The notes under the pieces were generated by a model. It was not told where the DNA came from, made no database searches, and saw only the letters and a program-made list of their open reading frames with translations. Both the position numbers and the translations under genes were made by a program. From contig CAZMHH010000001.1 of assembly GCA_964566035.1 (NCBI GenBank), forward strand, positions 21,130 through 85,129: a stretch of 64,000 bases of DNA. The letters are read 5' to 3'. Positions 2,736 through 33,605 of this stretch are shown in pieces; within the stretch, counting starts at the first letter, position 1; the number at the start of each line of letters is the position of its first letter. Origin of the DNA: an uncultured Thermodesulfobacteriota bacterium. GTDB taxonomy: Bacteria; Desulfobacterota; WTBG01; CAIYCZ01; CAIRTM01.

Positions 2736-3329
2736 ATGAAAAAACTTTTAAGCGGTATGTTTATTCTTACAGCAATGTTGTTTGGCTTTACACCGGGCTG
2801 TATTCCCATTGAGCCTAACTATGAAACAGTAACAATCGGAAAACAAGTCTGGATGGCAAAAAACATTAATATTGAAACCGGAAACAGTTGGTGTTATGAC
2901 AATGACCCTCGCAACTGTGAAATATATGGAAGGTTATATGACTGGGAAACAGCAATGAATGTTTGCCCATCCGGCTGGCATCTTCCAAGTTATGAAGAGT
3001 GGACTAAGCTGGTTGACAGTCTTGGTGGTGTGAATTTTGCGGGTAGCAAAATGAAATCAACAGGCACAATCGAAACAGGCACAGGACTGTGGAGTTCTCC
3101 CAATACAGGTGCCACAAACTCAAGCGGGTGGTCAGGTTATCCAGGTGGCTGGAGGGAACAAGATGGCAGTTTCCACAACCTGGAAAAAAGCGGTTTATGG
3201 TGGAGTTCCAGTGAATATATCACATCTGATTCTCATTACCTTCTCCTGAATTATTACGAGGTCATTGTAAACAGATACACCGCCAATAAACAAACCGGTA
3301 TGTCTGTACGTTGTCTCAGGAACTGGTAA
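2736..3329 (+). CDS. Lipoprotein with Fibrobacter-succinogenes-major-paralogous (FISUMP, TIGR02145-like) domain
   Basis: Signal peptide with lipobox (FTPGC). Conserved YGRLYDWETA..CPSGWHLPS.EEW..L and WWSS motifs are shared with the ORFs at 15276 and 19023. Confidence 0.6.
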   Translation: MKKLLSGMFILTAMLFGFTPGCIPIEPNYETVTIGKQVWMAKNINIETGNSWCYDNDPRNCEIYGRLYDWETAMNVCPSGWHLPSYEEWTKLVDSLGGVNFAGSKMKSTGTIETGTGLWSSPNTGATNSSGWSGYPGGWREQDGSFHNLEKSGLWWSSSEYITSDSHYLLLNYYEVIVNRYTANKQTGMSVRCLRNW

Positions 3330-8841: not shown

Positions 8842-8956
8842 TACAGCTCCTTGTTGTCAATAGACTTTGAATATTATTTCTTTGAAAAGATTATATCCAC
8901 TGATCTTATCTTACTTGGGGCAGGGGTTTTTACGATAATTCAGACTGTTTCGTGGG

Positions 8957-9120
8957 CAATAAAAAAGCCGGGCTCCTTTTTTTCGGAAAAGAAGACCGGC
9001 TTATATCCAGTCATTTAACTCCTTTCCAAATTCAGGAGGCTAAAAGGCTTTCGCCTCTGCCCTTTCGACCGCGCTCCATAGGCTTAATTTATGCCTTTAG
9101 GAGAAAACAGCTCGGAGTCA
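8957..9120 (-). promoter_or_regulatory. Candidate riboswitch, copy A (aptamer about 9019-9120 plus intrinsic terminator 8957-9002) in the leader of porin gene 7411..8841
   Basis: On the minus strand it reads 5' CUCCGAGCUG…GCGCGGUCGAAAGGGCAGAGGCGAAAGCC…CCUCCUGAAUUUGGAAAGG. The terminator is AAGCCGG…CCGGCUU followed by U6. It is homologous to copies B to E. Confidence 0.5.
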
Positions 9121-9218
9121 GTCATTATTCATTGATGAGACTGCTGTTCATCTCTTGATATTAATGCATCATGTTAATTCCTGTTGCTTTAATGGATTAT
9201 ATACCTGCCCTTATACAA

Positions 9219-9381
9219 ACAAAAAAAGCTACTGCCCTGTCTGGAAAGGCAATAGCTTTTTAAATATGTATATTAAAAGCAGTTTTCCCTTTCCAAACAC
9301 GGGAGGTAAAGCCCTTTCGGATTTTACCCTTTCGGCTGCATTCTCATGGCATAAATTGCTTTAGAGATACCAGCTTGGGAA
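9219..9381 (-). promoter_or_regulatory. Candidate riboswitch, copy B (aptamer about 9285-9381 plus 12-bp terminator 9226-9259 and U7), tandem with and upstream of copy A
   Basis: The minus strand reads UCCCAAGCUGG…GCAGCCGAAAGGGUAAAAUCCGAAAGGGCUUUACCUCCCGUGUUUGGAAAGGG. Then comes the stem AAAGCUAUUGCC/GGCAGUAGCUUU followed by U7. Confidence 0.5.
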
Positions 9382-9452
9382 TTATTTATAATAATGTATA
9401 GCACGTTGAGTTTAAATAGTCAAGTTTTTTTAACTTTTTTTCTGTATTGGCA

Positions 9453-10283
9453 TCATCCTTTATAAATAATAGTGCCAACATGTTCTCCCTCAAGGGCTTT
9501 TGTTAAATTACCCTCTTCAAGCCCGTTGATGATCTGAATACTGTCCATGACCTCGCTGTTCATCAGAATATCCAGACAGGGTCTTTCAATAATCAGGTCG
9601 TCGAAATCTCTCTCAATAAGTTCATTGACGCTAATTGTAGGAATAAATTCAGCACTATCATTTTTTTTTGGATCATCAGAATAAAGCCCATTCTCATCTT
9701 TAACCATTATACACTGTTTTGCTCCGATTAAATTGGCAAGCAGAACAGTACCGGCATCGGTGCGGTGTTGAGGAACTCGTCCGTCTTTTGATGGGATTGA
9801 AAAGAAATCATACGGTGGCATGCCCTGCATCACCGGAATGCAGCCCTCTGCAAAATAAGTATAGAGCCTGATAATCTCATGCTCATCTATGCAGATTCCG
9901 CCATGTGTAGAAAGAAGCATCGACAGCAAAAGCGCATTCTGCTCCGACACAGAGCTTCCAAATTTGGCAATCACGCCTGTAGGCATGCCCATTTCAATTC
10001 CGATGGCATAAATATGCCTGCTGCGGGTCCCTCCCCCTGTTGTAATAAGCATCTTGTGCTTCTTTTTGCACTCGGCAATCTCTTTTATAATCTTAGGCAG
10101 TGCCTTAACCCCCCTGTCACAGATGGACTGCCCGCCTATCTTAAGCACTGTCACATCCGGAAACAGTCTCTGCTGTGGCGAATATTCCAAACCCTTGAGG
10201 AAAGTTTTACTGATAAGGCTTTCTCCCATAAGACGGCTCTTAACATGAAGTCGCCGCCCGTCTTTATCTCGAACAAGTGACAT
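9453..10283 (-). CDS. Amino-acid-kinase-fold protein (UMP kinase / molybdenum-storage-protein MosA/MosB-like)
   Basis: VLKIGGQS motif of the amino acid kinase family. Last gene of the Mo/W transporter operon. Confidence 0.55.
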   Translation of the reverse strand: MSLVRDKDGRRLHVKSRLMGESLISKTFLKGLEYSPQQRLFPDVTVLKIGGQSICDRGVKALPKIIKEIAECKKKHKMLITTGGGTRSRHIYAIGIEMGMPTGVIAKFGSSVSEQNALLLSMLLSTHGGICIDEHEIIRLYTYFAEGCIPVMQGMPPYDFFSIPSKDGRVPQHRTDAGTVLLANLIGAKQCIMVKDENGLYSDDPKKNDSAEFIPTISVNELIERDFDDLIIERPCLDILMNSEVMDSIQIINGLEEGNLTKALEGEHVGTIIYKG

Positions 10284-15275: not shown

Positions 15276-15878
15276 ATGAAAAAAGAGTTGTTTATTTTAG
15301 CGATAATATGGTCCTTGTTATTTGCAATGGGCTGCGATCCCACCTATACTGACACCAGGGACGGACAGGTCTATAAAACTGTAAAAATAGGAAGTCAATG
15401 GTGGATGGCTGAAAACATGAATTACGAAATGGATAACAGTTGGTGCTTTGAAGACGAACAGGGTAACTGCGACACCTATGGCAGGTTATATGCGTTTGAA
15501 ACAGCGCTCACTGCATGCCCTTCAGGATGGCGTCTGCCAGACAATAAAGACTGGAACATCCTAATCGACTATCTGGGAGCCATAGAAACTGCGGGCGGCA
15601 GGATGAAGGCTACAGGAACCCTTCAGGATAGCTCCGGTTACTGGCTAAAACCGAATACAGGAGCCACAAATGAAAGCGGATTTTCAGGTTTGCCGGGTGG
15701 CTCACGCAGCGGCTTTGGACATTTCAACCGGTTGGGAAGCGACGGCTACTGGTGGAGCGCTACAGACAACCAGGGGGGTAGCGCCATACTGTGGCGGCTG
15801 AGTAACAGAAGCAGCAGCATATCCGAGGACAGCTACCTGAAACAATACGGACTTTCTGTGCGCTGCATCAGGAATTAA
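15276..15878 (+). CDS. Lipoprotein with FISUMP domain (paralog of 2736 and 19023)
   Basis: Lipobox LLFAMGC and YGRLYAFETA..CPSGWRLP motifs. Confidence 0.6.
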   Translation: MKKELFILAIIWSLLFAMGCDPTYTDTRDGQVYKTVKIGSQWWMAENMNYEMDNSWCFEDEQGNCDTYGRLYAFETALTACPSGWRLPDNKDWNILIDYLGAIETAGGRMKATGTLQDSSGYWLKPNTGATNESGFSGLPGGSRSGFGHFNRLGSDGYWWSATDNQGGSAILWRLSNRSSSISEDSYLKQYGLSVRCIRN

Positions 15879-18410: not shown

Positions 18411-18505
18411 AACCTACAATCAGTTTATGCTACTAAAGTATTATATTTTGACTATTAATATCCATATAAAATTCCATTCAGTCACATTATGCTAAATTGT
18501 AATCT

Positions 18506-19022: not shown

Positions 19023-19877
19023 TCAATTTTTGATACACCGCACAGATCCGGCATAAATTTTGTGGGCAATACCCCTGTGAATCTCAGCGTTAAAATAACG
19101 CAGCACCCTGAAATAGGAAAAATCCACACCATTATCGTTCGAACACCACCAGTAACCGTCAATACCAATCCCGTAAAACTCCCCGCCGGGGTAACGTCTG
19201 CCGCCGGGCAGTCCTGAAAACCCGCTTGAGTTGACCCCCGATGTATTGGGGGATTCCCATAGTCCCGTGCCGCCCTGCAGGGTTCCTGCTGCCTTCATCC
19301 TGCCGCCTGCAATACTTTCTCCCCCAAGATAATCTGCCAGCAGGTCCCACTCCACGTCAGACGGCAGGTGCCAGCCTTCAGGACAGGCATCTGTTGCGTT
19401 TTCCCAGTCATAAAGTCTGCCGTAGAGCAGACAGTTATCATCTGTTTCGTCATAGCACCAACTGTTCTGAATGCTGTAATTTAAATTTTCCGCCATCCAG
19501 AGCTGAGACCCGATTCGTATGGTTTTATATGTCCTGTCATCCCTAGGATCGGTCATTTCTCCGTAATCCGGCTCAGGATAAACTATCTGCTCAAAGTTTG
19601 CAATCAGCACCCGGCTGTGGAACACTGTGAAGGTGTAATTCGCATTTGTTGTCAAAATCTGATCATCTTCTGTCCAGGAAACAAACCGATATCCTTCAGA
19701 AGGTATGGCAGACACGCTAATCTCACTTATTCTTTCAAACAGACCGCCGCCCTCTACCCTCCCCCCTTCCTCAGGACGGGCAATAAGGGTAATCTCCAAA
19801 GGCTCATCCGGTTCACAGCCTGATGCAAACAGGAAGAGTGTCAGCAGAATTAAGAATATACAAGACTTGGTTTTCAT
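19023..19877 (-). CDS. Lipoprotein with FISUMP domain (paralog), longer N-terminal region
   Basis: Lipobox LFASGC and YGRLYDWENA..CPEGWHLPS motifs. Confidence 0.6.
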   Translation of the reverse strand: MKTKSCIFLILLTLFLFASGCEPDEPLEITLIARPEEGGRVEGGGLFERISEISVSAIPSEGYRFVSWTEDDQILTTNANYTFTVFHSRVLIANFEQIVYPEPDYGEMTDPRDDRTYKTIRIGSQLWMAENLNYSIQNSWCYDETDDNCLLYGRLYDWENATDACPEGWHLPSDVEWDLLADYLGGESIAGGRMKAAGTLQGGTGLWESPNTSGVNSSGFSGLPGGRRYPGGEFYGIGIDGYWWCSNDNGVDFSYFRVLRYFNAEIHRGIAHKIYAGSVRCIKN

Positions 19878-19892
19878 GTTTGAATCCTCTTC

Positions 19893-20492
19893 TTAAAAAT
19901 TAACTTTATTGTCATACCGCGGATTTGTTAAATGTTGATACATCTCCGGCGTATCAACATCAATTCCTGCAAGGGCATCAGAAATATTAACCGTGCGCAG
20001 ACTGTCAGGGTGATGCTGAATAACCTGCCTTCCGCCAACATCCCCTGTAAGCGCCATAAGGCTGTTTTTAAAGCGTGAAGGAAAAATAACAGGATTTCCA
20101 CGCTCCCCATTGTATAACGGCACAACAATTCTGTCTTTATCCTTCCACCAGAGGGTAATCAACCCATCGATTGTTTCGGAGTTCAAATACGGCTGATCCC
20201 CAACCAGAAACATATAGGCTTCTGTTTTATCCGCTACGGAACAAACCCCCAGTATTACCGAAGCGCTCTGTCCTTCCGAAGCATTCGGGTTGAAGATTCT
20301 TCTGACATTGTATGACCTGACAGCATTGCCGACTTTTTCGTTCTGATAGATAACAATCAGCTCATCAAGAAGCGAGTTACTTGCAGCCCTGACCACCCGC
20401 TCAATAACCGGTACCCCTTCAATCAGAAGAAGGAGTTTTTCCTGCTTCATCCTTTCAGAAAACCCCGATGCCAGTATTATCCCGCTAACCAT
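19893..20492 (-). CDS. MobA-like NTP-transferase, probable molybdenum cofactor cytidylyltransferase (MocA-like)
   Basis: N-terminal ILASGFSERM nucleotidyltransferase motif. Lies in the xdh-family accessory cluster. Confidence 0.6.
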   Translation of the reverse strand: MVSGIILASGFSERMKQEKLLLLIEGVPVIERVVRAASNSLLDELIVIYQNEKVGNAVRSYNVRRIFNPNASEGQSASVILGVCSVADKTEAYMFLVGDQPYLNSETIDGLITLWWKDKDRIVVPLYNGERGNPVIFPSRFKNSLMALTGDVGGRQVIQHHPDSLRTVNISDALAGIDVDTPEMYQHLTNPRYDNKVNF

Positions 20493-20507
20493 TTACCGAG
20501 ACACCTT

Positions 20508-21359
20508 TCATGATGAATATATACGCCCACTGGAAAGACAGGATATGATAACCCCTGAAATATCTGATACGCTCCCTTTTTTCATAACCGTCTCAGCAAT
20601 GCGTTTTGCCGCGATTCTTCTCAGCGCATTCTCTGCCTTGTTCAGCAGAACATATCTGAAACTGGAACGGCAGACCCCCTTGAACAGTCCCCGTTCAGAA
20701 AGAATCAGACTGACGAGCAAATTCCTGCCGATCTTTTTTCCGATATAACCGCCAGTTACTGAACAGAAGAGATGGGGTCTGTGCACATATTTGTCAATCA
20801 GCGGTTTTCCAAGCGCATCGAGTCCAATCACCCCGACCGTTTTTGTGGTCTTCCGGGGGACTACCGGCTCATAATCAGCAGGGGCTTTTACAGGTTTCCG
20901 CTTAGCCCCGTCTGCCTCAACCAGTATAAACTCAAATTTTTTTTCACTAAATATTGTATCAACTGCCTCAGGAGACACGCCAAAGAGTTTTCCTTTCTGA
21001 TCATCAATCCGGTCCCCGAAACAGACCGCAGTACCGGCACAGGATTCAGGAAAACAGTCCTTCACATCACCTGACAACATCAGCCTGTCAAACAGAAAGG
21101 CTTCCCGTCTTGCCATCTGTGTCGTGGTGGTTACCAGCACTTTTTTACCTTCGGCTTTAAGTTCCTGAGAGAGTGTATGGATGGCAGAAGATTTCCCGCC
21201 CCCCCCTACAAAACAGATAAGTTCCTGAGATTGCAAATTAAGAGCTTCTGACAATTTCATGACCTTCTTATGCCCTGGGATTGCAGCAGGGCGACTGTTT
21301 AGCCCCGGTGTAACCGGCGCTTCTGACCTGTATGATTTCAGCAAGAATGGAGACAGCAA
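20508..21359 (-). CDS. YqeC-like selenium-dependent molybdenum hydroxylase accessory protein (P-loop GGGGKSS)
   Basis: P-loop motif and size resemble the YqeC family. Positioned between mocA-like and xdhC. The 5' end overlaps xdhC in the track, so the true start may be internal. Confidence 0.45.
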   Translation of the reverse strand: MLSPFLLKSYRSEAPVTPGLNSRPAAIPGHKKVMKLSEALNLQSQELICFVGGGGKSSAIHTLSQELKAEGKKVLVTTTTQMARREAFLFDRLMLSGDVKDCFPESCAGTAVCFGDRIDDQKGKLFGVSPEAVDTIFSEKKFEFILVEADGAKRKPVKAPADYEPVVPRKTTKTVGVIGLDALGKPLIDKYVHRPHLFCSVTGGYIGKKIGRNLLVSLILSERGLFKGVCRSSFRYVLLNKAENALRRIAAKRIAETVMKKGSVSDISGVIISCLSSGRIYSS

Positions 21360-22065
21360 TCTCAGCCGGGGTATTTGCCCCGATATTTAATCCTACCGGT
21401 GAATGAACAAAGTCGATAGCCTCCTGACTCACCCCGTTTTCTTTCAGCCTCTCAAAGCATTTTGCAACCTTTGCCCTGCTTCCGATCATGCCAAGGTAGC
21501 GGCAGGGTTTATCAATACATTTTTCAAGCACCTCAAAATCAAAGGCATGTTTATGGGTAAGAATTACAATATAGGTAATTGGGCTGAATGATACTTTATC
21601 CATAGCAGATAAATAATCCTCAGCAATAACATTGTCTGCCCACGGCAGACGACTGCTGTTGGCAAACTCCTGCCGGTTATCCACAACCGTTACATGGAAA
21701 TCAAGCATTTTGCCAATTTGAGCAATACAGGTTCCGATATGTCCAGCCCCAAAAACAACCAGTTTCGGCGCAGGCACCAGAGGTTCAAGAAATACCGCCA
21801 TCCCTCCCCCGCAGGCCATGCCGATATCCTTCAGTTCATGTCGGACTATTTTTGCCTTCCCGCCGCTCATCATTTCAAGCGCCTCATCAATAATCATCTT
21901 TTCGATAGCCCCCCCGCCGATGGTTCCTGAAATGCTTCCGTCAGACCGGACAAGCATTCTGGCTCCCTCTTCTCTTGGGGCTGAGCCGATGGATTCGATA
22001 ACAGTGGCAATCACCAACGGCTGATTTGTTTTTTTTGCCTCAATAATCTCTTGAAAAATGTCCAC
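21268..22065 (-). CDS. xdhC: XdhC/CoxI-family molybdenum hydroxylase maturation protein
   Basis: XdhC N-terminal and Rossmann-like domains (VVFGAGHIG). Confidence 0.7.
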   Translation of the reverse strand: MDIFQEIIEAKKTNQPLVIATVIESIGSAPREEGARMLVRSDGSISGTIGGGAIEKMIIDEALEMMSGGKAKIVRHELKDIGMACGGGMAVFLEPLVPAPKLVVFGAGHIGTCIAQIGKMLDFHVTVVDNRQEFANSSRLPWADNVIAEDYLSAMDKVSFSPITYIVILTHKHAFDFEVLEKCIDKPCRYLGMIGSRAKVAKCFERLKENGVSQEAIDFVHSPVGLNIGANTPAEIAVSILAEIIQVRSAGYTGAKQSPCCNPRA

Positions 22066-24451
22066 TTTCTCTCCTTTTCACATACTGTTTAACTATCTTT
22101 TCAGGGGTAATCGGGGCTTCTGTAAATTGCATCCCGACAGCATTATAAATTGCATTTGCACACGAACATATTGCACCGATAAGAGCCGATTCTCCGCAGT
22201 TTTTAGCACCAAGCGGTCCTGAAGGATTCGGGGCTGTTTCAACCAGAATAATCTTTACCTCAGGCATATCCGAGGGTCCAAACATCTTGTAATCATTAAA
22301 ATTGTTGTTGAGTACCCTGCCTCTATCATCATAGAAATAGTCTTCGCTCAGTAAAAAACCCAACCCCTGCTGCAATCCGCCTTCAAGCTGTCCTTCAACA
22401 GAAGGGGGATGTATGGCTCTTCCAATATCATGGGCGTGTACAATTTTTAACACCACCACCTCTCCGGTTTCAATATCAACCTCTACCTCCGTCATCGTTG
22501 CTCCGAAAGGAGCCATAGAATACTGTGAGTAATAATTTGATGTAGTTTGAATTTGTTCCGGAAACTGATTGTTTTTGGCTCTGAAATTATAAGAGCTATT
22601 GCCCGCACAATCTGCAGCCACACGGCTTAAATGTATTTTTTTATGTCCGGGAATATCCTTTACAACTATTGTTTTTGTATCATCTATTTCAAGCAGATCC
22701 GTTTCTACACCAAGCAGTTGACCTGCCCGTTCAAGCAGTCGTTTCCTTAAACTCCTGCAGGCTTCCATCACAGCAGGTGCAACACAGTATAGAGTACTGC
22801 TCACATAAGCCCCAATGTCAAAACCCAGTTTATCTATATCTTCGGGCTTAAGACGTATATCCTCTACCGGAAAGCCAAGCGTTTCAGCAGCAAGCTGAGT
22901 TATAACCGTGTACCCCCCAGTGCCAAGATCAGATATCGATGCAGTAAGTTCTACAGTACAGTCCTCATTCAACTTCGCAGTACAGGTTGTATGCTCAAGC
23001 ATTAATGGCCATGCACCATTTGTCTGACTCGTAATGCCAAGTCCTATCCCCCTTCGCTTTGAACCGGTCTGCTTTTTATATCTTTTCTGTTTTTCATACC
23101 ATCCCATCTCTTTTGCCGCGGACTCAAGGCAATCGTTGAGACCATCTGAAGAGCTCGCACATCCCTGAAGCCATGTTTCATCACCTGTGGATTTGTGCCA
23201 CCTTTTTCGCCATTCAATCGGATCAAATCCAAGTATTGTGCACATTCTCTCAATAAGCTGCTCCTGGGCAAATGCTATCTGCGGGTTGCCATAGCCTCTG
23301 AATGCTCCGGCAGGGGCTTCATTGGTATAATAAGCATCTGCCTTCATCTTCATTGCGCTCCACTTATACAAGCCATGTAGAAAAGCTGCTGCACAATACA
23401 GTGGACCCAATCCATGAGTATAATAGCCCCCTTTTCTCGCAGTAAAGTGAGCAGCAACACAAACGGGTACGCCATTCTTTTTAAATCCCATTTTCATCCG
23501 GATTATTCCGGGATAGCGTGTCTCTGAAGCCACAAAGTCTTCCTCACGCAAAAATTCCATTCTTACAGGATGACCCGGCACTGCCATTGCAAGTGCGCAT
23601 ACATGAGGCTCTCCAATCATACCAAGCCTCGCACCAAAGCCTCCCCCAACAGTGGGCTGGACTAGCCTGACCCTTGAAAGGGGGAGCTCAAAAAGCTCGG
23701 CTAACAGCACCTGCACCGGCTTTGGCATCCGGGTGGAGGTCCAGATGTTCAGACATCCCCCCTCATCATAGAAAGCCACATAAGCATGGTTCTCCATTTG
23801 ACACTGCTTCTGCTTTGGCACAGTAAATGTATCTTCTACAATCAGATCACATTCATCCCAAAGCTGATCAGGGGTTCTGCCTTTCTTGTCATTCCAGCCA
23901 TAAGACTTTCCCGGAAAAAATGCTTCCGGCAGTTCGCAGGCAAGGTTTCCTGGCTTTAAATCTGTAAACAGATAACCATTCTTCTTCTTTCCCTCTTCTA
24001 TAGAAGCTTCAGCCGTCAAATAAACAGGGAGAGGCTCATAGGTTATTTTAATCTTCTCTGCCGCCCTTTCGGCAGCCTCTTCGGTTGCGGCTATAATGCC
24101 ACAAATTGCATCACCCTGATGTTTTACAGTTTTGTTAAAAATGTTGATGTCTGCGATTTCACCGAAAACATCATTAACAGCCTCCGGTACCAAAAGTTTC
24201 ACAACCGTTGTATTGTAACACTTTTTTGCGACATCATCAGGTCCTAATATCTTTATGACTTCCGGAACTTTCAATGCATCTGAAAAATCGAGTGTTTTAA
24301 TCCGGGCATGCGCATATTCCCAGCAGCGCACTATTTTGCCATAGTACATTCCCGACAGAGTGATATCTCCGGCATAAACTGCGCGTCCGGTTGCTTTATC
24401 TCCGGAATCAACCTTCGGGATTCTTTTTCCAATTACTGTATCACACATCAC
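22040..24451 (-). CDS. Xanthine dehydrogenase/aldehyde oxidoreductase-family molybdopterin-binding large subunit (copy 1)
   Basis: The ald_xan_dh fold. The N-terminus is nearly identical to the paralog at 26168. RBS AGGATAG. Confidence 0.85.
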   Translation of the reverse strand: MMCDTVIGKRIPKVDSGDKATGRAVYAGDITLSGMYYGKIVRCWEYAHARIKTLDFSDALKVPEVIKILGPDDVAKKCYNTTVVKLLVPEAVNDVFGEIADINIFNKTVKHQGDAICGIIAATEEAAERAAEKIKITYEPLPVYLTAEASIEEGKKKNGYLFTDLKPGNLACELPEAFFPGKSYGWNDKKGRTPDQLWDECDLIVEDTFTVPKQKQCQMENHAYVAFYDEGGCLNIWTSTRMPKPVQVLLAELFELPLSRVRLVQPTVGGGFGARLGMIGEPHVCALAMAVPGHPVRMEFLREEDFVASETRYPGIIRMKMGFKKNGVPVCVAAHFTARKGGYYTHGLGPLYCAAAFLHGLYKWSAMKMKADAYYTNEAPAGAFRGYGNPQIAFAQEQLIERMCTILGFDPIEWRKRWHKSTGDETWLQGCASSSDGLNDCLESAAKEMGWYEKQKRYKKQTGSKRRGIGLGITSQTNGAWPLMLEHTTCTAKLNEDCTVELTASISDLGTGGYTVITQLAAETLGFPVEDIRLKPEDIDKLGFDIGAYVSSTLYCVAPAVMEACRSLRKRLLERAGQLLGVETDLLEIDDTKTIVVKDIPGHKKIHLSRVAADCAGNSSYNFRAKNNQFPEQIQTTSNYYSQYSMAPFGATMTEVEVDIETGEVVVLKIVHAHDIGRAIHPPSVEGQLEGGLQQGLGFLLSEDYFYDDRGRVLNNNFNDYKMFGPSDMPEVKIILVETAPNPSGPLGAKNCGESALIGAICSCANAIYNAVGMQFTEAPITPEKIVKQYVKRRESGHFSRDY

Positions 24452-24459
24452 AAACTATC

Positions 24460-24562
24460 CTGATGGTAGCTCGTAGCTCATAGCTCGTAGCTGGTGGCAA
24501 AAGCAAAAAAAAACAACTGCCCCGGACAGCCATTTTATTGGTTCCGGATTGTCCTGGTTAGG
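24460..24562. repeat. Composite intergenic repeat block (gtagctcgtagctcatagctcgtagctggtgg plus R element copy 2)
   Basis: The hexamer-periodic tagctNgtagct run is related to 13345-13372 and 18848-18861. The R element matches 18850-18885 and 30915-30958. Confidence 0.5.
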
Positions 24563-25272
24563 TGCTATAAAAACGTAAGCAGAACCGTTTCGTATCAAAC
24601 ACGCATGTTTTCATAAACCGTTGGGCTGCCGACAGAAAGCATTACCCGGGACTAAAGCATCATTTAATCATTATCTACAGTTTACAGAGGATATGAAATA
24701 GAGTCAATAGAATGCAGATTCAGGACTAAACAAAGCCATAATGTCTTTTAACTGCAAATGGATAATGTCACCTCAATGCTTGGCACATTAATTTTTGGTA
24801 TGCATTTTGGAGCGGGAATAAAGAATGACGATTCGGAAAATCTTTTTGTTTTGAACGAATGAAAGAGACTGCGAGAGTGATATCTGTAACATCCTGTAAC
24901 TGCTTTTACATTACCCCGGTTTTGGCTGATAATCTTTTGAGTCCAGCTCTTCTCGGGATTAAACAAAAAAAACGGAGCAGAAGCGGAATGTCTGACAACT
25001 GCAATCAGATTTTGTTACAAGCCATTTACCTGCATGCTAAGACAAAGTCATGCTTAAATTTGGCGTAGCTAACAGCTTTTTTGCTCATCAGCTTAATATC
25101 TCATTTGATTATCAGCTCTTTTGGGGATAGATATTTTTTTGCTTCTTACTAAGTTGTCAAGAATTAAATAATAATCCTATTTAAATCGCATAGTGCGACG
25201 TAATAAGTTGATCATCCTGCAAAAGCTCGAAAAAAAGACCTGTGAACAATTCCATTCATCTGGGTCGGATAG

Positions 25273-26163
25273 CTATGTTTTGACATACAGCTCTCTTGAC
25301 AGATACAGTATTGCTTCAACCACTGCACCGCCGATTGCGCGAGCCTTATCAAAAATGGTATAACAGTAACTGTGTACCCCTCTGGGATCAACATCGCCAA
25401 TTTTGAGATTCTTTTCAACCTCAGATCCGTTCTGAATCAGTCCGTGTATTACACCTGAAATCTCTGCTTTAACAGCAAAAGTATCCACATAGGCAATGAT
25501 ATCATCCTTGATAACCGTATCACCGATTGCTTTGACATTTCGAATCCTTCCGCTGCACGGCGCCCTTAAAACCCGTTCCCGGGCATACCCAAGCAACGGC
25601 ACAGAAACCCCTGTATCTGCAGAGGCATATCCATGAAAGATAAGTCTGCCCAGATCATGCCCTTCAAGGGTTTCCACAACAACATCAACCTCAACACCGG
25701 CATTGAACCCGGGGCCAAGTCCGATGGTTATCGGAGCCATTTCCCGATACGTTCCAAGATTTTTCTTGGCAAGTGTTGCATCAACAACCACATCCGGTTT
25801 GACAATGCCAACACTGACAGCTTCCGGATCAACAAGCACAGGCACATATCCATTTTCCCAGGCTTGATAAGCATCTTCAGGCGCTTCAATTTTTACAGCG
25901 GTAAGATCTTCTACGGTTACCCTGCCATCAGTAACTGCCAGTGCATAAGCAACCGTGCGCCTGACCACAAGGGGCTTTTCCAGTTCAAGAACAAGGGTTC
26001 TGAATCCGCACCTGTGCAGTCTGTAAATAACACCGCTGGCAATATCGCCGCCTCCCCTCACAATTACGGTTGAATCAATCTGAATCATGTTTTTTTTCGG
26101 AAGCAAATAACAATATAAACCCGGCACCCCATGTAAATAAGGGATGCCAGGAATATAAGTCAA
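25273..26163 (-). CDS. YqeB-like selenium-dependent molybdenum hydroxylase system protein
   Basis: Size and position immediately downstream of a Mo-hydroxylase large subunit. Family recognition is from memory only. Confidence 0.45.
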   Translation of the reverse strand: MTYIPGIPYLHGVPGLYCYLLPKKNMIQIDSTVIVRGGGDIASGVIYRLHRCGFRTLVLELEKPLVVRRTVAYALAVTDGRVTVEDLTAVKIEAPEDAYQAWENGYVPVLVDPEAVSVGIVKPDVVVDATLAKKNLGTYREMAPITIGLGPGFNAGVEVDVVVETLEGHDLGRLIFHGYASADTGVSVPLLGYARERVLRAPCSGRIRNVKAIGDTVIKDDIIAYVDTFAVKAEISGVIHGLIQNGSEVEKNLKIGDVDPRGVHSYCYTIFDKARAIGGAVVEAILYLSRELYVKT

Positions 26164-26167
26164 TATT

Positions 26168-28552
26168 TTATTTTTTTACGCCGCCGTTTTTCTTTATGGC
26201 AGCCAGCACCCGCTCAGGTGTAATAGGTGCTTCTGTTATCTGTATGCCAATAGCATCATTAATGGCATTTGCCACTGATCCGATTGGTCCCATTAATGCA
26301 GATTCACCGCAGCTTTTTGCTCCAAAAGGTGCTACGGGATCAGGCGCTGTTTCAACAAGCGTAATATGGCTTTCTGCCGGCATATCCGATGCCCCAAACA
26401 TCTTATAGTCTGTAAAATCGTTATTCAGACAGAGCCCGTTTTTGTCATAATAAATATCCTCGCTCAGGATATATCCCAGACCCTGGTGGGCGCCGCCTTC
26501 AAGCTGTCCTTCAACAGACGGCGGATGAATGGCTTTACCAATATCATGGGCATTGGACAGGGCAAGCACTTTGACCTCTCCGGTTTCAATATCAACCTCT
26601 ACCTCGGCACAGCAGGCTGCAAAAGGCGGCGAACAGTGCTTTACAAAATCACTGTAGTGCGCAACTATCTGACCCGGAATACCAATGGTTTTTCCTGTAG
26701 CCGGATCATCAAAACTGTAAATGCTTTGATGCGCTATGGTACGGGCATTTATTTTCTTTTCAGGATCCCACGGACAGATTATCTCCTTATCCTCTCCAAA
26801 CTGAACATCCTCATCCTTCAACTGAAGATTCAGTGCCGCCCTATGGAGAATCTCTTTTTTCAGCAGTTCGGCAGTCTGCATCACAGCTCTTCCTACACAG
26901 TAAATGGTACGGCTGGCATGAGCACCGATATCAAAACCATTGACATCAGAATCACAGCATTTCAGATGAACATCTTCCATAGGCCAGTTAAGGGCTTCTG
27001 CTGCAATCTGGGTAATAGCAGTATGACCGCCTGTTCCAAGATCAGACACCGATGCCATGATCTCAACTGTGCAGTCCTCATTGAGCCTCATGATTACATT
27101 TGAATGTTCAAGCAGCATGGGCCAGGCACCGCTGGTATGCTGCATAATACCTATACCCAAGCCCCGTCTTTTGGTTCCGGTCTGCTTTGCATACTCTTTT
27201 TTCTTCCTGTCCCATCCAATTTTCTTCTTCGCATCTTTTATACAGTCATCCAGTCCGGTTGAAGCAAATTTGACTCCTTTTAACCATGTTTCATCGCCTA
27301 TTCCCTTTGCCCATTTTTTCCGCCACTCTATCGAATCAATACCGAGCTGGTTACAGGCGCGATCTATCAACTGCTCAACACCGAATGTGTTTTCAGGGTT
27401 TCCGTATCCGCGGTATGCACCGAAGGGCACCATGTTGTTGAACCATATTTCAGCTTTACACCCCATCGCCTGCCATTTGTACATACCGTGCATAAATGCA
27501 GCCGTACAGAAGGGAGGACCTGAACCATGTGTATAGTATCCGCCTTTGAGCACCTGGTAATCTCCGTAACAGGCAACCGGTGTCCCGTCTTTTTTAAAAC
27601 CGGCTTTTACATAAAAATGACCCGAAGCCCTGCTCTCAGATGCCACCCAGTCTTCTTCACGCAGGTACTCTATTTTCACCGGCACGCCCGGCATTGCCAT
27701 CGCCATTGCACAGACATGCGGCTCTCCGATCATTCCCAGCCGGCACCCGAAGCCGCCGCCAATAGGGGTCTGAATTACCCTGACACGGGTCAACGGCAGT
27801 TCAAAAAGTTCTGCCAGCAGGTTCTGGACAAGCTTGGGCATCTGAGTGGATGTCCAGCAGGTCAGCCTGCCTCTGTCATCATACTGGGCAATATAGGAAT
27901 GATTTTCCATCTGCACCTGCTTCTGACGGGGCACATAAAAGGTGTCTTCGACGATAATATCGGCATCCTTGAATTTTTCATGGACATTTTTTCCATCCGC
28001 TGCATTCCACCCGTACTCACCGTTGGGGAAAAAGGAATCGGGGAAGTTTGCCGCCAGATTACCAGGTTTTAAAGGGGTAAACTGAATAGCATCCTTTTTC
28101 TTTGACTCCGCCGCGGTCATAATGACAGGCAGTGGTTTATACTCAATCTTTACAAGTTCAGCGGCGCGTTCAGCCGCCTTTTCATTTTTGGCTATAATAC
28201 CGCATACAGCATCGCCCTGATGTTTAACGCGTCCGTTGAAAATATTCAAATCTGCGATTTCTCCAAAAACATCCGAAAACACAGCAGGAACAAGCAGTTT
28301 CATAATCGTAGTATTATAATTTCTTTTGGTAACCTCTTTGGGTCCGAGACATTTTACCACACCCGGAACTTTTTTTGCATCAGAAAAGTCGATCTTGACG
28401 ACCTCTGCATGGGCATATTCCCAACAGCGGACGATTTTTCCATACAGCATTCCCTCCATCTGTATATCGGCCGCATACTTGCAACGCCCCGTTGCTTTTT
28501 CGCGGGCATCAAGCTTCGGAATACGCTGCCCGATTACTGAATATTGACTCAT
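26168..28552 (-). CDS. Xanthine dehydrogenase-family molybdopterin-binding large subunit (copy 2). The true start is MSQYSVIGQRIPKLD.
   Basis: The internal ATG at 28552 has RBS GAAAAGGAGA, aligns with the N-terminus of the paralog at 22040, and sits 26 nt after the 2Fe-2S gene stop. The ORF track's upstream extension to 28723 overlaps that gene. Confidence 0.85.
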   Translation of the reverse strand: MSQYSVIGQRIPKLDAREKATGRCKYAADIQMEGMLYGKIVRCWEYAHAEVVKIDFSDAKKVPGVVKCLGPKEVTKRNYNTTIMKLLVPAVFSDVFGEIADLNIFNGRVKHQGDAVCGIIAKNEKAAERAAELVKIEYKPLPVIMTAAESKKKDAIQFTPLKPGNLAANFPDSFFPNGEYGWNAADGKNVHEKFKDADIIVEDTFYVPRQKQVQMENHSYIAQYDDRGRLTCWTSTQMPKLVQNLLAELFELPLTRVRVIQTPIGGGFGCRLGMIGEPHVCAMAMAMPGVPVKIEYLREEDWVASESRASGHFYVKAGFKKDGTPVACYGDYQVLKGGYYTHGSGPPFCTAAFMHGMYKWQAMGCKAEIWFNNMVPFGAYRGYGNPENTFGVEQLIDRACNQLGIDSIEWRKKWAKGIGDETWLKGVKFASTGLDDCIKDAKKKIGWDRKKKEYAKQTGTKRRGLGIGIMQHTSGAWPMLLEHSNVIMRLNEDCTVEIMASVSDLGTGGHTAITQIAAEALNWPMEDVHLKCCDSDVNGFDIGAHASRTIYCVGRAVMQTAELLKKEILHRAALNLQLKDEDVQFGEDKEIICPWDPEKKINARTIAHQSIYSFDDPATGKTIGIPGQIVAHYSDFVKHCSPPFAACCAEVEVDIETGEVKVLALSNAHDIGKAIHPPSVEGQLEGGAHQGLGYILSEDIYYDKNGLCLNNDFTDYKMFGASDMPAESHITLVETAPDPVAPFGAKSCGESALMGPIGSVANAINDAIGIQITEAPITPERVLAAIKKNGGVKK

Positions 28553-28577
28553 CTTTATTCTCCTTTTCAAAAATTTA

Positions 28578-29078
28578 TCACTTTTTAGCAGCCATAACTT
28601 CACCAGCCGATGATACTGCCTCGACAATTTTGGTATATCCTGTACACCGGCATATATTGCCCTCGAGCCCCAGACGAATCTCTGCTTCTTTTGCCTTCGG
28701 GTTATTCTCAAGAATATCCACACTCTTCATAATCATACCGGATGAGCAGAACCCGCACTGTATGGCTCCCTTTTCAACAAATGCCTGCTGAACCGGATGA
28801 AGTTTACCGTTTTTCTCAAGGCCGCCGACAGTATAAATCTTCTTGCCATCCATCATGGCAGCAAGTACCAAACATGAATCAATTGCTTTTCTGCCGGTGG
28901 GATATTTTTTATCTTCTACAAGCACCGTGCAGGCGCCGCATTCACCTCTGCCGCAGCAGTGTTTAACATCCGTTAATTTCAACTGATCTCTAATTACATG
29001 CACCAGAGTATCGCTGTCATCAACGGCAATATTGTATTCCTCCCCATTAATAAACAGGGTTATGGGACGTTTCTTCAT
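28578..29078 (-). CDS. [2Fe-2S] iron-sulfur small subunit of molybdenum hydroxylase (CoxS/XdhC-type)
   Basis: Plant-type CGRGECGAC motif and a second 2Fe-2S motif CGFCSSG…CRCTGY. Confidence 0.85.
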   Translation of the reverse strand: MKKRPITLFINGEEYNIAVDDSDTLVHVIRDQLKLTDVKHCCGRGECGACTVLVEDKKYPTGRKAIDSCLVLAAMMDGKKIYTVGGLEKNGKLHPVQQAFVEKGAIQCGFCSSGMIMKSVDILENNPKAKEAEIRLGLEGNICRCTGYTKIVEAVSSAGEVMAAKK

Positions 29079-29112
29079 AATGACTTCTCCTGTAACTGTT
29101 ATTATTTAAAGA

Positions 29113-29982
29113 TTATGTGTTACATGCAGCCTGCAAAACCCGTTTTACAACAACACCGGATACGTGTTTGCGATATTCTGCTGTTGAACGGACATCATCT
29201 ATCGGTTTGACATTTTGGGGAATTATGTCCGCAATCTCAGTTAGAAGTTTATCGGTAATTGCTGTATTTGTCATCATATCTTCTGCTTTTTTGATACGAA
29301 TGGTGGTCGGCGCTACAGCACCCACGGCGATTCGGGCAGCGCTGCATTTTTTCCCGTTCATTTCAAGACAGACTGCAGCGTTGACTTTCGAAAGGTCAAA
29401 GGTCATCCGGGTAATCCGGCTGAATGCGGAGCACTGGTTTTTATCTGCTGGAGGCAGTTTCAATTCAACTGCAATCTCGTCCACGCTTCTATTAATTTTT
29501 CCATAGTCAATAAAAAAATCATCAATGGGAACCTCTCTTTTTCCTGATGTACTCTGCAACACAACGGTCGCGCCCAGCGCCAGCGCAGCGCAGCAACAAT
29601 CGCCTGAGGGAGAAGCCCTTAAAATATTGCCAAGAACAGTTGCCGAGTTTCTGATTTGAGGCGAACCGAGTGCTGATGCCGCCTGCCACAGGGCATTGTA
29701 GTGCTTCTTCACTTTGGCATCCTGCACCAACTGATACACAGAGGTCATCGCCCCGATGTTCAACCCTTCAGTATTTGAATAGTTTATGTAATCAAGACCC
29801 GGTATTTCACCCAGTGCAAGAACATATTTTGCCTTCAATCCCTTTTGAAACATGATCATAAGGTCTGTGCCACCGGCGAGAACTGCAGCCTTCTCACCAT
29901 ACTGCGAAGCCAAACCAACTGCTTCTTCAATGCTTTTCGGCTTAAGCAGCTCAAATTCCGGCAGAATTCGGCTATTACTCAT
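29113..29982 (-). CDS. FAD-binding medium subunit of molybdenum hydroxylase (CoxM/XdhB-type)
   Basis: FAD_binding_5 motifs (AGGTDL) and a CO-dehydrogenase flavoprotein C-terminal domain. Confidence 0.8.
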   Translation of the reverse strand: MSNSRILPEFELLKPKSIEEAVGLASQYGEKAAVLAGGTDLMIMFQKGLKAKYVLALGEIPGLDYINYSNTEGLNIGAMTSVYQLVQDAKVKKHYNALWQAASALGSPQIRNSATVLGNILRASPSGDCCCAALALGATVVLQSTSGKREVPIDDFFIDYGKINRSVDEIAVELKLPPADKNQCSAFSRITRMTFDLSKVNAAVCLEMNGKKCSAARIAVGAVAPTTIRIKKAEDMMTNTAITDKLLTEIADIIPQNVKPIDDVRSTAEYRKHVSGVVVKRVLQAACNT

Positions 29983-30899: not shown

Positions 30900-32165
30900 T
30901 TATTTAAACAGGCGAACTGACCCGGACATACGTCTTTTGGGTTCCGGCTCGTCCGGTTCAGCTCTATTGTAATATTGCCCAATATCATAGTTCATCTGGG
31001 CAAAGGGAGTGGGATAGTGTTCAGCAATTTTTCTTTTTTTGTAATAGACACACCACGTACCATTAAGCAGCCTGCGCACTTCCACGCGCGCCATCGCATA
31101 TGAAATGCGGTCAACTCCCGGTGAAATTTTAATTCCCACACCGTTTATAGTAACGGTATTATTGCAATCAACCGTTCTCTCATAATAACGGCTGCAAATT
31201 CGACATAGATCAACATGTTCAGGAACTTCCCGCCATGCCTGTCTCCTGCTCTGCGGTGCAAAGGAACATCTGTAATTGTAGTCATAGAGAAACTGTCTAT
31301 CAAGAAACAGATTGCCCTCCCTTATGTTTTGAATTGCATGTTTTGCTATCTCATCTGCAAGCAGGCTTTCAAGTCTAAAAAGAAGATTTACAGCATTTCT
31401 TCTTGGAATATGCTCATGTTTGATGCCAAGTTCTTCAAGCGCCCGTTCAACAGGGTTTGTTTCAGGGAACCCCTGGAGTTCTTCCTTTATGGTCATGTTT
31501 TTTTTTCTTACTTTTACTGCATTTCGGCTATGCTGACAAAGAGATTGCGGAATTCCGCATCTAATAAGCATTTTTTTTAAAAGCCATAAATAACCGTCTG
31601 TAGTTTCTGTTGCAAAGAAATTAGCACACAAACATCTTAATGTGGTCATATCCACAGCAGCCATAAAACAACACTCAGGATGTGGATCAGGAAACCATTT
31701 TTGGGTCAGCCCTCCCCAGAGTACCATACCCCCTTCCTTTCCGGACAGGCTGTAAGATTTGGTGCGTCTAACTCTTTTCTGCACATGCTTGGGGCCGGGA
31801 TTTTCAGAAGCTAATATTTTTCTGACCGTTTCCCGACTGACTTCAATTTGATGATTTTGAAGAAGTTTTTCAGAAATCTGTGTATAGTTCAGTCCACGAT
31901 AAAGGGATTGAGAAAGAGATATGATGAATTTTCTCATATCATCATCAATCGCAAGAGCAGGTTTTTTGCCTTTATTGCCATGTTGCAGCCCTGACAGCCC
32001 TTTTTCCTTAACTGTTTTTTTAAGTCGTTTTGCCTGCCTGTAACTGATGCCTATACATTCGGCTGCCTCGCGCAATGTAATGCAACCATTAAGCACTTTT
32101 TCGATATAGTAAAATCTATTCTGCTGTTTTTTATCCGGTTTTATTTTTTCCATGATAATATTCAA
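30900..32165 (-). CDS. IS-like HTH plus integrase-core (DDE-type, ISNCY/IS481-like) transposase homolog. The second catalytic Asp is apparently replaced.
   Basis: N-terminal HTH (ITLREAAECIGISYRQAKRL), and central D…E residues aligned with the paralog at 33617. Terminal inverted repeats were not found. Confidence 0.4.
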   Translation of the reverse strand: MNIIMEKIKPDKKQQNRFYYIEKVLNGCITLREAAECIGISYRQAKRLKKTVKEKGLSGLQHGNKGKKPALAIDDDMRKFIISLSQSLYRGLNYTQISEKLLQNHQIEVSRETVRKILASENPGPKHVQKRVRRTKSYSLSGKEGGMVLWGGLTQKWFPDPHPECCFMAAVDMTTLRCLCANFFATETTDGYLWLLKKMLIRCGIPQSLCQHSRNAVKVRKKNMTIKEELQGFPETNPVERALEELGIKHEHIPRRNAVNLLFRLESLLADEIAKHAIQNIREGNLFLDRQFLYDYNYRCSFAPQSRRQAWREVPEHVDLCRICSRYYERTVDCNNTVTINGVGIKISPGVDRISYAMARVEVRRLLNGTWCVYYKKRKIAEHYPTPFAQMNYDIGQYYNRAEPDEPEPKRRMSGSVRLFK

Positions 32166-32376: not shown

Positions 32377-32403
32377 TTAAAATAAATATTAAATATACTT
32401 ATC

Positions 32404-32560
32404 TCCAAGCCGTTGTTTTCTAAGGTCACAGAGACTATGATGCGCGGCCGAAAGGGTTTTGTTCGAAAGGACACTGCCTCCCGTGGCTGGAAAGGAGAAT
32501 AGGCACAGGAATTATAAAAGACCTGTCCCCGGTTCTGCCGCGGACAGGTCTTTTTTTTGG
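32404..32560 (+). promoter_or_regulatory. Candidate riboswitch, copy E (aptamer 32404-32505, 10-bp terminator 32519-32551 plus U8) in the leader of the MoCF_biosynth-domain gene
   Basis: The plus strand reads CUCCAAGCCG…GCGCGGCCGAAAGGGUUUUGUUCGAAAGGACACUGCCUCCCGUGGCUGGAAAGGAG. Then comes AGACCUGUCC…GGACAGGUCU followed by U8 and RBS GAAAGGGAAAAU-ATG. Confidence 0.55.
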
Positions 32561-32573
32561 TGAAAGGGAAAAT

Positions 32574-33605
32574 ATGATAACCGTACCGGTCAGAGATGCC
32601 GTAGGTATGACGCTTGGACATGATATCACACGTATTATTCCTGGTGATTTTAAGGGAGTAGCATTTAAAAAGGGGCATATTATCTCCTCTGAAGACATTG
32701 ATGAGCTTCTAAAAATCGGCAAGGAGAATATTTTCGTGCTGGAGCTCGGCAATGGAATTATTCATGAAAATGACGCAGCGCTTAGAATTGCAAAAGCAGC
32801 CTGCGGTCAGGGAATTGTTTTTTCCCAGCCCGCCGAAGGAAAGGTGGAATTTCATGCCGACTGTTTCGGTCTGCTTAAAATCAATACACATGCCCTTCTT
32901 GAAATCAACCTGCATGAAGGCATTATATTCTCCACCATACATTCAGACCATATTTCAGAAAAATCTCAAAAGCTCGGCGGGACCCGGATTATTCCGCTGG
33001 TTATTGAAGAACAAAAAATTGTAGAGATAGAAACCATCTGTAGCAGATGTTATCCTCTTATTCAAATTAAACCCTTAAAAAAACATAAAGTAGGGATAGT
33101 AACCACAGGTAGTGAGATATACCACAAGCGGATTGAGGATAAATTCGGTGCGGTTTTAACAAGGAAGTTTGAGGCACTTGGCATGGATATTCTCAAGCAG
33201 GTTATTGTTGATGATGATACGGCAATGATTTCACATGCCATAACAGGACTCATACGGGATGGAGCCGATTTTATTGCCACCACAGGCGGAATGTCTGTTG
33301 ACCCGGATGATGTTACCCCGTCCGGAATTAAAGCAGCAGGCGGTAAAATTATATCCTACGGAGCACCCGTTCTGCCCGGGGCAATGTTTCTTCTTGCATT
33401 GATTAATAATGTTCCGGTGGTCGGATTGCCGGGCTGTGTAATGTATGTCAACACGAGCATATTCGAGCTTGTTGTGCCAAGAATTCTTGCAGGAGAGAGC
33501 GTTTCACGGAAAGAGATCGCCATGCTTGGACATGGCGGGTTCTGCTACAGTTGCCATGAGTGCCGGTACCCGCAATGCAGTTTCGGCAAAGGTGCTAATT
33601 ATTAA
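32574..33605 (+). CDS. Molybdopterin-binding (MoCF_biosynth / MogA-MoeA-like) domain protein with C-terminal Cys cluster
   Basis: A GGMSVDPDDVTP motif typical of the MoCF biosynthesis domain, and a C-terminal CYSCHECRYPQC. Confidence 0.55.
   Translation: MITVPVRDAVGMTLGHDITRIIPGDFKGVAFKKGHIISSEDIDELLKIGKENIFVLELGNGIIHENDAALRIAKAACGQGIVFSQPAEGKVEFHADCFGLLKINTHALLEINLHEGIIFSTIHSDHISEKSQKLGGTRIIPLVIEEQKIVEIETICSRCYPLIQIKPLKKHKVGIVTTGSEIYHKRIEDKFGAVLTRKFEALGMDILKQVIVDDDTAMISHAITGLIRDGADFIATTGGMSVDPDDVTPSGIKAAGGKIISYGAPVLPGAMFLLALINNVPVVGLPGCVMYVNTSIFELVVPRILAGESVSRKEIAMLGHGGFCYSCHECRYPQCSFGKGANY

Follow-up and report, generated by a model that had tools for sequence, protein, structure and literature searches.

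In the 64,000 nucleotides of DNA analysed here (the window), it is likely that two independent and complete riboswitches of the Moco family stand in series within one 5' leader and gate the operon that follows. The computational analysis found two complete aptamers of the same class on the minus strand, with no open reading frame between them and with a separate terminator and antiterminator for each; regarding a single transcript, a -35 box is located ahead of the distal copy (B) only and in 0 of 10 internal copies, and a lone TATAAT hexamer lies at 9201-9196 in the spacer. The doubled Moco/Wco layout is real, yet it has already been described for the family, and the mechanism is the published one at a new locus. 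The less expected and potentially notable part of the finding may be the cargo operon, the interest of the tandem itself being modest.

When the whole window was compared with Rfam at gathering thresholds, five full-length matches emerged, all to the same family, RF01055 (Moco/Tuco riboswitch aptamer), for which the gathering score of 36 bits was taken as the membership cutoff. Aptamer B occupies positions 9392-9270 (82.2 bits, E 2.1e-18) and the proximal aptamer, A, positions 9129-9002 (52.9 bits, E 8e-10), both on the minus strand and both covering model positions 1-135 without truncation. The remaining copies lie at 32391-32513 on the plus strand (66.1 bits) and at 14603-14479 and 18424-18298 on the minus strand (50.3 and 40.6 bits, respectively). 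These E values bear out the preliminary description, which had placed two aptamers in series on the minus strand at 9219-9381 and 8957-9120; of those limits, 9381 and 9120 fall on the 5' strand of P1, and 9219 and 8957 on the ends of the terminators. Our own covariance model, R1, scored 104.2 bits for aptamer B and 84.5 bits for aptamer A. In all five copies of the window P3 is deleted (model positions ~61-76), P2 and P4 being joined by 3-4 nt only. Judged by their sequences, copies B and A belong to the P3-less ('Tuco/Wco') variant of the Moco RNA family. The riboswitch class, initially left unnamed, can be given as the Moco RNA motif, and the variant as the P3-less 'tungsten cofactor' one, and on sequence grounds our confidence in the identity of both elements is high. 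To our knowledge, direct in vitro binding of a Moco/Wco ligand has never been demonstrated for any member of the family. That the P3-less subtype acts as a tungsten-cofactor sensor is a proposal made from gene association, as set out in the available text of PMC2408646.

The structural features of the class are found in both copies. P1 is formed by 9381-9377 paired with 9289-9285 in aptamer B, and by 7 bp, 9120-9114 with 9022-9016, in aptamer A. From the alignments, both carry a GAAA tetraloop together with a receptor, which is the canonical CCUAAG...UAUGG in A and CUCUAAAG...CAUGAG in B. The conserved core CCUCCC...UUGGAAAGG is intact in aptamer B; aptamer A shows CCUCCU where the core is a near-invariant CCUCCC, and a U-G pair is still possible at the changed position. 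Folding of a MAFFT alignment of 30 copies, from the window and related loci, with RNAalifold recovered P1, P2, P4 and P5, with compensatory changes on both sides in 19 of 29 pairs. When 33 copies were aligned by fitting to our own model, 93.7% of the cells were paired and 21 of 29 pairs covaried, values matched by 0 of 500 shuffles, and slid controls for the same alignment gave 37-52% paired. The core identity between A and B is 63%; copy A shares 62-66% with the other four copies of the window, which share 66-81% among themselves, and its identity to any other copy, in the window or in the related loci, is at most 67%. Thus the earlier statement that A has diverged further than the other four copies stands in terms of core identity but not of Rfam score, which is lowest for the copy at 18424 (40.6 bits). 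The further view that A is old and diverged, yet structurally intact, agrees with its full RF01055 match, its core identity and the covariation alignment.

Each aptamer is followed by a putative expression platform on the minus strand. In the platform of B (9221..9261) a hairpin at 9261-9223, built on the core GCUAUUGCC...GGCAGUAGC, goes with a U7 tract at 9227-9221. That of A (8961..9002) has a U6 tract at 8966-8961 and a hairpin at 9002-8965 whose GCCGG...CCGGC core spans 9000-8967. A terminator of its own had been assigned to each copy in the preliminary description, and both hairpins and U-runs were recovered, that of A with the very same hairpin limits. A generic terminator scan found 2 sites versus 1.0 +/- 1.0 in shuffles, which is not above chance; among related aptamers from 20 or more loci, 30 of 32 show a hairpin and a T-run within ~60 nt downstream.

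In the platform of B the terminator's 5' arm and loop (CCUUUCCAGAC) show complementarity to segment GUUUGGAAAGG of the aptamer, and in that of A segment GGAAAGGAG of the aptamer is a potential pairing partner of the 5' arm (CUUCUUUUCC), the outcome in both cases being an antiterminator. In full, the alternative helix pairs the conserved aptamer segment GUUUGGAAAGG with CCUUUCCAGAC in B or with CUUCUUUUCC in A. Strings similar to CUUUCCAAAC, complementary to the aptamer core, occur in many of the related terminator arms. The automated scoring of complementarity was crude, cutting the target of copy A at an internal U-run and missing the core motif in three copies, and the antiterminators of A and B were therefore taken from prefix and constrained folding. 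On prefix folding of B, the lowest energy belongs to the aptamer fold at 110-140 nt and to the antiterminator at 150-170 nt; for A, it passes from the aptamer fold (120-140 nt) to the antiterminator (150-160 nt) and then, at 170 nt, to the terminator. Constrained folding gave -50.0 kcal/mol for aptamer plus terminator versus -50.1 kcal/mol for the antiterminator in B (0.1 apart), and -56.4 versus -54.0 kcal/mol in A (2.4 apart). The antiterminator duplex of copy B has an energy of -20.0 kcal/mol (z -5.4 versus shuffles). Both platforms are predicted to be bistable, with the antiterminator superseding the aptamer fold as the nascent RNA grows. Since the conserved UUUGGAAAGG segment can pair with the 5' arm of its own terminator, a role as ligand-dependent OFF switch acting on transcription is predicted for each copy, and this layout is present twice. 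A and B are not alike in their predicted energetics, and equal set-points are thus not assured.

A sigma-70-type promoter candidate is located on the minus strand at 9395..9423, with the -35 box TTGACT at 9423-9418, a spacing of 17 nucleotides and the -10 box TATACA at 9400-9395, and its predicted start falls a few nucleotides before P1 of aptamer B. The preliminary description had put the same TTGACT-N17-TATACA element at about 9388-9416; it is present a few bases away, and there is no TTGAC[AT] box ahead of A. Such a box occurs at most 80 nt upstream of 17 of the 24 aptamers that come first in their leader versus none of the 10 internal copies, window A included, and in 3.8% of background 80-nt windows, from which B would bear the promoter and A would be internal. 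The generic promoter scan gave no signal above chance at the locus. The spacer of ~90 nt between the riboswitches (9130..9220, minus strand) contains no open reading frame and holds the perfect TATAAT at 9201-9196, whose -35 box is poor; a second lone TATAAT, also with a poor -35 box, is found at 8895-8890. The former could yield transcripts that meet copy A alone, and the latter could let transcripts bypass both switches. The minus strand between the aptamers has no credible open reading frame, just ORFs of at most 35 aa which overlap the RNA elements. Two plus-strand ORFs of 68-69 aa (8952-9158 and 9155-9364) overlap the RNA elements as well and were set aside as chance ORFs.

The operon behind the two switches is encoded on the minus strand and opens with a 476-aa anion porin of the OprO/OprP family (8841-7411; Pfam Porin_O_P 5.9e-30; OprO 4rjw 4.5e-15; OprP 2o4v 1.1e-10), which has a ribosome-binding site AAGGAG at 8852-8847 and a TTG start at 8841. 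The Pfam match and the start position agree with the porin gene previously proposed downstream of both switches. It is followed by a 603-aa dihaem c-type protein of the 'GEGP motif' type (7384-5573; NF041762, 415 bits) with two CxxCH motifs, an apparently Sec-type signal peptide, a central domain of the pterin-binding sulfite-oxidase/PruR-like fold, a transthyretin-like domain and a helical C-terminal one; a sequence comparison of this protein with the PDB gave nothing useful, and fold comparison alone was informative. The next genes code for a 134-aa small protein with no family match (5507-5103), a PKD/Lcl_C protein identified by Pfam (5093-4209) and a TupA-like tungstate-binding protein (4191-3379; PF12849). 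For the latter NF041772 is the sole NCBIfam match, with a score of 247.9 bits that lies under the equivalog cutoff of 400. The intergenic gaps of the operon are 9-65 nt, and terminator-like sites within it are not above chance.

On the other side of the leader lies the gene previously described as having a kinase fold (9453..10283, minus strand). The Pfam AA_kinase match upholds that assignment, and more exactly the product is a homologue of MosB, the beta subunit of the molybdenum storage protein (PDB 2ogx_B, E 1e-68). This gene is the last of an operon which opens with the riboswitch at 14603-14479. As no terminator is seen in the sequence between the MosB-like gene and aptamer B, read-through from that operon would meet both switches. 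Genes of the ModA, ModBC-like/MosB-like and MoeA-like types follow the sister riboswitch copies of the window. The proteins encoded in the window include both Mo-type ones (ModA, enzymes of the xanthine-dehydrogenase family and a MocA-like transferase) and a W-type one (TupA). Adjacent DUF364 genes were considered as members of the Tub tungsten-storage family, and this assignment was dropped, the Tub paper making no mention of DUF364. The location of the leader fits RF01055, in that the operon ends in a TupA-like gene and tupA directly follows the riboswitch in related loci.

Family, structure and covariation, a terminator and antiterminator for each copy, the position of the promoter and the gene content were all computed here, and from them we infer the ligand, termination itself and the form that the dose response would take. 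In the mechanism that we propose, transcription would start at the TTGACT/TATACA promoter just ahead of B, and binding of the ligand at each copy would keep P1 and the conserved UUUGGAAAGG segment within the aptamer. In this ligand-bound form the downstream hairpin and U-run would form and halt RNA polymerase; in the ligand-free form the UUUGGAAAGG segment would be captured by the terminator's 5' arm, as an antiterminator, and the polymerase would read through. The polymerase would have to clear both checkpoints in order to reach the porin/dihaem/small protein/PKD/TupA operon, and with two checkpoints in series expression would approximate the product of both read-through probabilities. This product rule would lead to a tighter OFF state and to a steeper response to the cofactor than that of a single switch, and by analogy with known tandems a steeper, 'digital' response is a reasonable inference. 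Furthermore, the absence of a terminator after the MosB-like gene means that the pair can gate read-through from that operon too. The modelled energetics of A versus B leave room for a role in leak suppression or in widening the range: B is near-isoenergetic and A favours the terminator, and unequal set-points would widen, not sharpen, the response.

The operon could be followed in other genomes through the porin, of which ~60 orthologues at 50-76% identity were found, all from uncultured Thermodesulfobacteriota/'Deltaproteobacteria'. The cassette of porin, dihaem protein and small protein is kept across loci L001-L036 and beyond. No riboswitch or other Rfam family was seen upstream of the distant cassettes (L019-L036 and L001), L047 alone having one, which limits the link between riboswitch and porin to the clade with a porin identity of at least ~50%. 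The number of copies upstream of the operon is one in most loci, none in L001 and L085 (the latter with 70% porin identity), two in the window, L009 and L087, and three in L014. Among the closest relatives, the arrangement at L087 (65% porin identity) is a tandem with a terminator after each copy; the contigs of L082-L084 (76% porin identity) end inside the riboswitch and are uninformative on the tandem. With one copy in most of the orthologous loci and none in L001 and L085, the doubling is not required for the operon. On this comparison of sequences, the association of riboswitch, porin and tupA, and not the doubling, is the conserved feature. Across the loci, the cassette occurs under Wco-type riboswitches in ~20 lineages of Thermodesulfobacteriota and is repeatedly linked to tupA, also in distant relatives that have no riboswitch.

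The variable position of tupA bears on how the tandem arose. It could be, although we judge this rather unlikely, a by-product of gene-order rearrangement, the doubling itself having no special function and each switch still working. In this case tupA, from an ancestral order riboswitch - tupA - riboswitch - porin, would have been relocated to the operon's 3' end and the two attenuators would have been left adjacent. A TupA-like gene does lie upstream of the porin in six loci (L004, L005, L007, L010, L013 and L018), in five of which it is flanked by a first riboswitch and a porin-proximal one, and the order at L007 (MosB-like - riboswitch - tupA - riboswitch - porin) is that of the window with tupA inserted. 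In other loci, including the distant relatives devoid of riboswitches, tupA is downstream of the cassette, and this is its place in the three tandem loci where it is visible (window, L009 and L087). The same origin would accommodate the distal copy of the L014 triple, which is of the tupA-leader type and 86% identical to the tupA-leader riboswitch of L007, as well as the range of 0 to 3 copies among orthologues. However, copy B of the window is closest to the 14603 copy (77%) and the 18424 copy (73%) of the window itself, and to the distal copy of L009 (73%), rather than to tupA-leader copies, and four loci with tupA downstream (L011, L015, L017 and L047) carry a single riboswitch. In addition, the middle and proximal copies of L014 are 94% identical, which suggests a recent local duplication and not a deletion. 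The identities across loci indicate more than one origin of the doubled state, reached along different routes; the neighbour-joining tree of the aptamers has a basis of ~100 nt and is indicative only. That A and B retain intact aptamers and bistable platforms in spite of 63% identity argues that selection maintains both. A rearrangement concerns, in any case, the origin of the pair, and is compatible with the serial-switch mechanism.

The other alternatives deal with what each copy does. Divergence of A and B in specificity (W versus Mo cofactor, or cofactor versus precursor) would turn the leader into a two-input NOR gate, the operon being made only when both ligands are low. The modest identity between the two cores, the change in A at the near-invariant base (CCUCCU) and in the adjacent loop, the presence of Mo-type and W-type proteins in the window and the heterologous tandem logic gates described in other riboswitch classes (PMC9481103) would all suit such a gate. 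Nevertheless it appears improbable, as P3, the sole specificity marker proposed, is absent from both copies, the differences of copy A are mostly in stems with pairing kept, and the 2022 survey, in its available text, has no mixed Moco+Wco tandem (PMC9481103). There is likewise little probability that the main porin transcript originates at the internal TATAAT (9201-9196) and sees A only, leaving B mainly to attenuate read-through from the MosB-like operon. That -10 hexamer is perfect and the interval from the MosB-like gene to B has no terminator, but an acceptable -35 box is missing, the generic scan called no promoter there, and the TTGAC[AT] box that marks first copies is found in none of the internal ones; moreover, a chance TATAAT is not unlikely in a spacer of ~65% A+T, and B has a well-placed promoter of its own. 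Finally, we regard as very improbable that copy A is a decaying, non-functional remnant and B the sole regulator. An identity to every other copy that is the lowest of all, together with one changed near-invariant core base, would be expected of a remnant. An RF01055 score 17 bits over the gathering threshold across the full model would not, nor would a P1 of 7 bp, a canonical tetraloop with its receptor, or a terminator that lies within 2.4 kcal/mol of the antiterminator; and the porin-proximal riboswitch is the position conserved among orthologues. Two serial switches for one class of ligand is the reading that we prefer.

This reading places the locus among known relatives. The Moco RNA motif was defined by Regulski et al. 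in 2008, with 58 of 176 members lacking P3 and tracking the use of the tungsten cofactor, and tandem or triple Moco RNAs were reported in the same paper from Syntrophomonas wolfei and Geobacter metallireducens, the former with a P3-less triple that has terminators after the first two copies and for which 'digital' control was proposed (PMC2408646). Sherlock et al. in 2022 listed tandem Moco RNAs (13 doublets and 2 triplets) and tandem Wco RNAs among many 'pseudo-cooperative' classes, that is, those with multiple expression platforms, and noted heterologous tandem logic gates in other riboswitch classes (PMC9481103). What the available text of these two papers reports contradicts the claim of the preliminary description that, glycine and TPP examples apart, such tandems are rare, which is out of date. 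The locus resembles the tandems of S. wolfei, G. metallireducens and the 2022 survey in having several complete P3-less copies per leader and terminators after the upstream copies. It differs in its host, here an uncultured lineage of Thermodesulfobacteriota, in the presence of a terminator after the last copy too, those of the S. wolfei triple being described after the upstream copies, and in its cargo of porin, dihaem protein and TupA, the reported cargo being molybdopterin (MPT) synthesis and transport in S. wolfei and hydrogenase and arsenic-response genes in the surveyed Wco tandems.

Compared with single representatives, A and B share with the E. coli moaA leader (RF01055, PMC2408646) P1, the P2 tetraloop receptor, the GAAA of P4, P5 and the CCUCCC...UUGGAAAGG core. 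The moaA-type Moco RNA is likewise reported as an OFF switch, and the family is tied to genes for Mo/W transport and for synthesis or use of the cofactor. The E. coli representative, as described there, has P3 and acts on translation, with the ribosome-binding site sequestered in P1, whereas A and B lack P3 and have intrinsic terminators. Outside the family, the tandem TPP riboswitch of Bacillus anthracis (Welz and Breaker 2007, as cited in PMC2408646 and PMC9481103) also consists of two units of aptamer plus terminator in series for the same ligand, and is reported as the experimental model of how a response can be steeper yet not truly cooperative; its aptamer class and ligand are different, and it was established by experiment, whereas the tandem of the window is known here from computation. 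The tandem glycine riboswitch has two similar aptamers in one leader as well, but these share one common platform, dock with each other and show true cooperativity; in the present case there are separate terminators and ~90 nt between the units. Our literature searches on tungstate with porin and riboswitch, or with outer membrane porin and tupA, gave no title or abstract describing such a system; the word 'porin' has 0 occurrences in the available text of PMC2408646 and goes unmentioned in that of PMC9481103.

With regard to the cargo, we suggest tentatively, as a possible though doubtful reading, that the porin, the dihaem protein with its SUOX/PruR fold and the small protein form an undescribed module for the acquisition of W (or Mo) at the outer membrane and in the periplasm. 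As an example, the porin might admit oxyanion or thio-anion species, which would undergo redox processing and then be bound by TupA. If this were true, the leader with its one to three riboswitches would determine the tightness of repression of the module under plentiful cofactor. The crossing of the outer membrane by tungstate and molybdate is rarely addressed, and the cargo names candidate genes for it in sulfate-reducing and syntrophic bacteria. For riboswitch biology, the tandem adds a well-formed example to the known list. Furthermore, the same operon with 0, 1, 2 or 3 switch copies constitutes a small comparative series, which shows tandems arising repeatedly, by recent local duplication in L014 and, in the window, L009 and L087, from diverged copies of greater age, and which is suited to asking if the steepness or leakiness of control depends on the number of copies.

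The arrangement of riboswitches in series ahead of the porin operon recurs in related loci, since the orthologous operons are preceded by riboswitch doublets in L087 (1964-2254) and L009 (3552-3913) and by a triple leader in L014 (3390-3909), in which the middle and proximal copies are 94% identical. In L087 the doublet is followed by a fn3-like gene and then by the porin. The TTGACA box is absent from four closely related leaders (L003, L006, L008 and L032), and a conserved hairpin, GCAGAGC...GCUCUGC, stands in its place just ahead of the aptamer, at a distance of about 10-45 nt. Analysis of the tandem leader in the window also reveals two perfect TATAAT hexamers without a good -35 box, one between the riboswitches (9201-9196, minus strand) and the other between the terminator of the porin-proximal copy A and the porin start (8895-8890, minus strand). 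These hexamers possibly occur by chance in A+T-rich leader DNA; transcripts starting from them could escape one or both switches.

Besides the tandem pair, the window contains three more RF01055 riboswitches, all of them P3-less and each followed by a terminator. The copy at 18424-18298 (minus strand) precedes an Alginate_exp-type outer-membrane channel (18216-16777) and a ModA-type binding protein (16822-15929), which places a second outer-membrane channel, unrelated to the porin, under the RF01055 class. The copy at 14603-14479 (minus strand) lies ahead of two DUF4213/DUF364 genes, genes for a ModB-like permease and a WtpC/ModC-like ATPase, an ORF of 70 aa and the MosB-like gene. Both ModA-type and TupA-type systems in the window are preceded by the same P3-less riboswitch class. 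The remaining copy (32391-32513, plus strand) is located ahead of a MoeA/MoCF_biosynth-like gene (32574-33605), directly after which an ISNCY-family transposase gene is found (33617-34831, plus strand), with a HTH/transposase-like ORF on the opposite side of the riboswitch (30900-32165, minus strand); this riboswitch and gene pair may be located in or beside mobile DNA.

Users of the Mo cofactor adjoin these "tungsten-type" riboswitches. A molybdoenzyme and Mo-cofactor gene cluster (19893-29982, minus strand) encodes two xanthine-dehydrogenase-family large subunits (24451-22040 and 28723-26168), a FAD subunit (29982-29113), YqeC (21359-20508) and a MobA/MocA-like nucleotidyltransferase (20492-19893), all on the minus strand. 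Three FISUMP (Fib_succ_major) domain proteins are dispersed among the Mo/W genes (2736-3329 and 15276-15878, plus strand; 19023-19877, minus strand). The MosB-like gene directly upstream of the tandem leader (10283-9453, minus strand) is single, matching the beta subunit of Azotobacter molybdenum storage protein with an E value of 1e-68 and the alpha subunit with 3e-44, and no gene for a second storage protein subunit is visible near it. The porin loci of L007, L014 and L032 also have homologues of this gene as neighbours.

The gene of the "GEGP motif" dihaem protein (7384-5573, minus strand) always adjoins that of the OprO/P-like porin. The dihaem protein carries two CxxCH motifs, an apparent Sec-type signal peptide lacking a twin arginine and a central domain with the sulfite-oxidase/PruR pterin-binding fold. 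In an alignment of 50 sequences, none of the columns of this domain that are invariant or 90% conserved is a Cys, and thus the protein may lack the usual mode of Moco binding. In four distant porin/dihaem cassettes without a riboswitch (L034, L038, L052 and L057, one of them from a Nitrospinota MAG) a tupA-like gene is nevertheless located downstream. This suggests that the porin/dihaem cassette is functionally tied to tungstate uptake, the riboswitch not being required.
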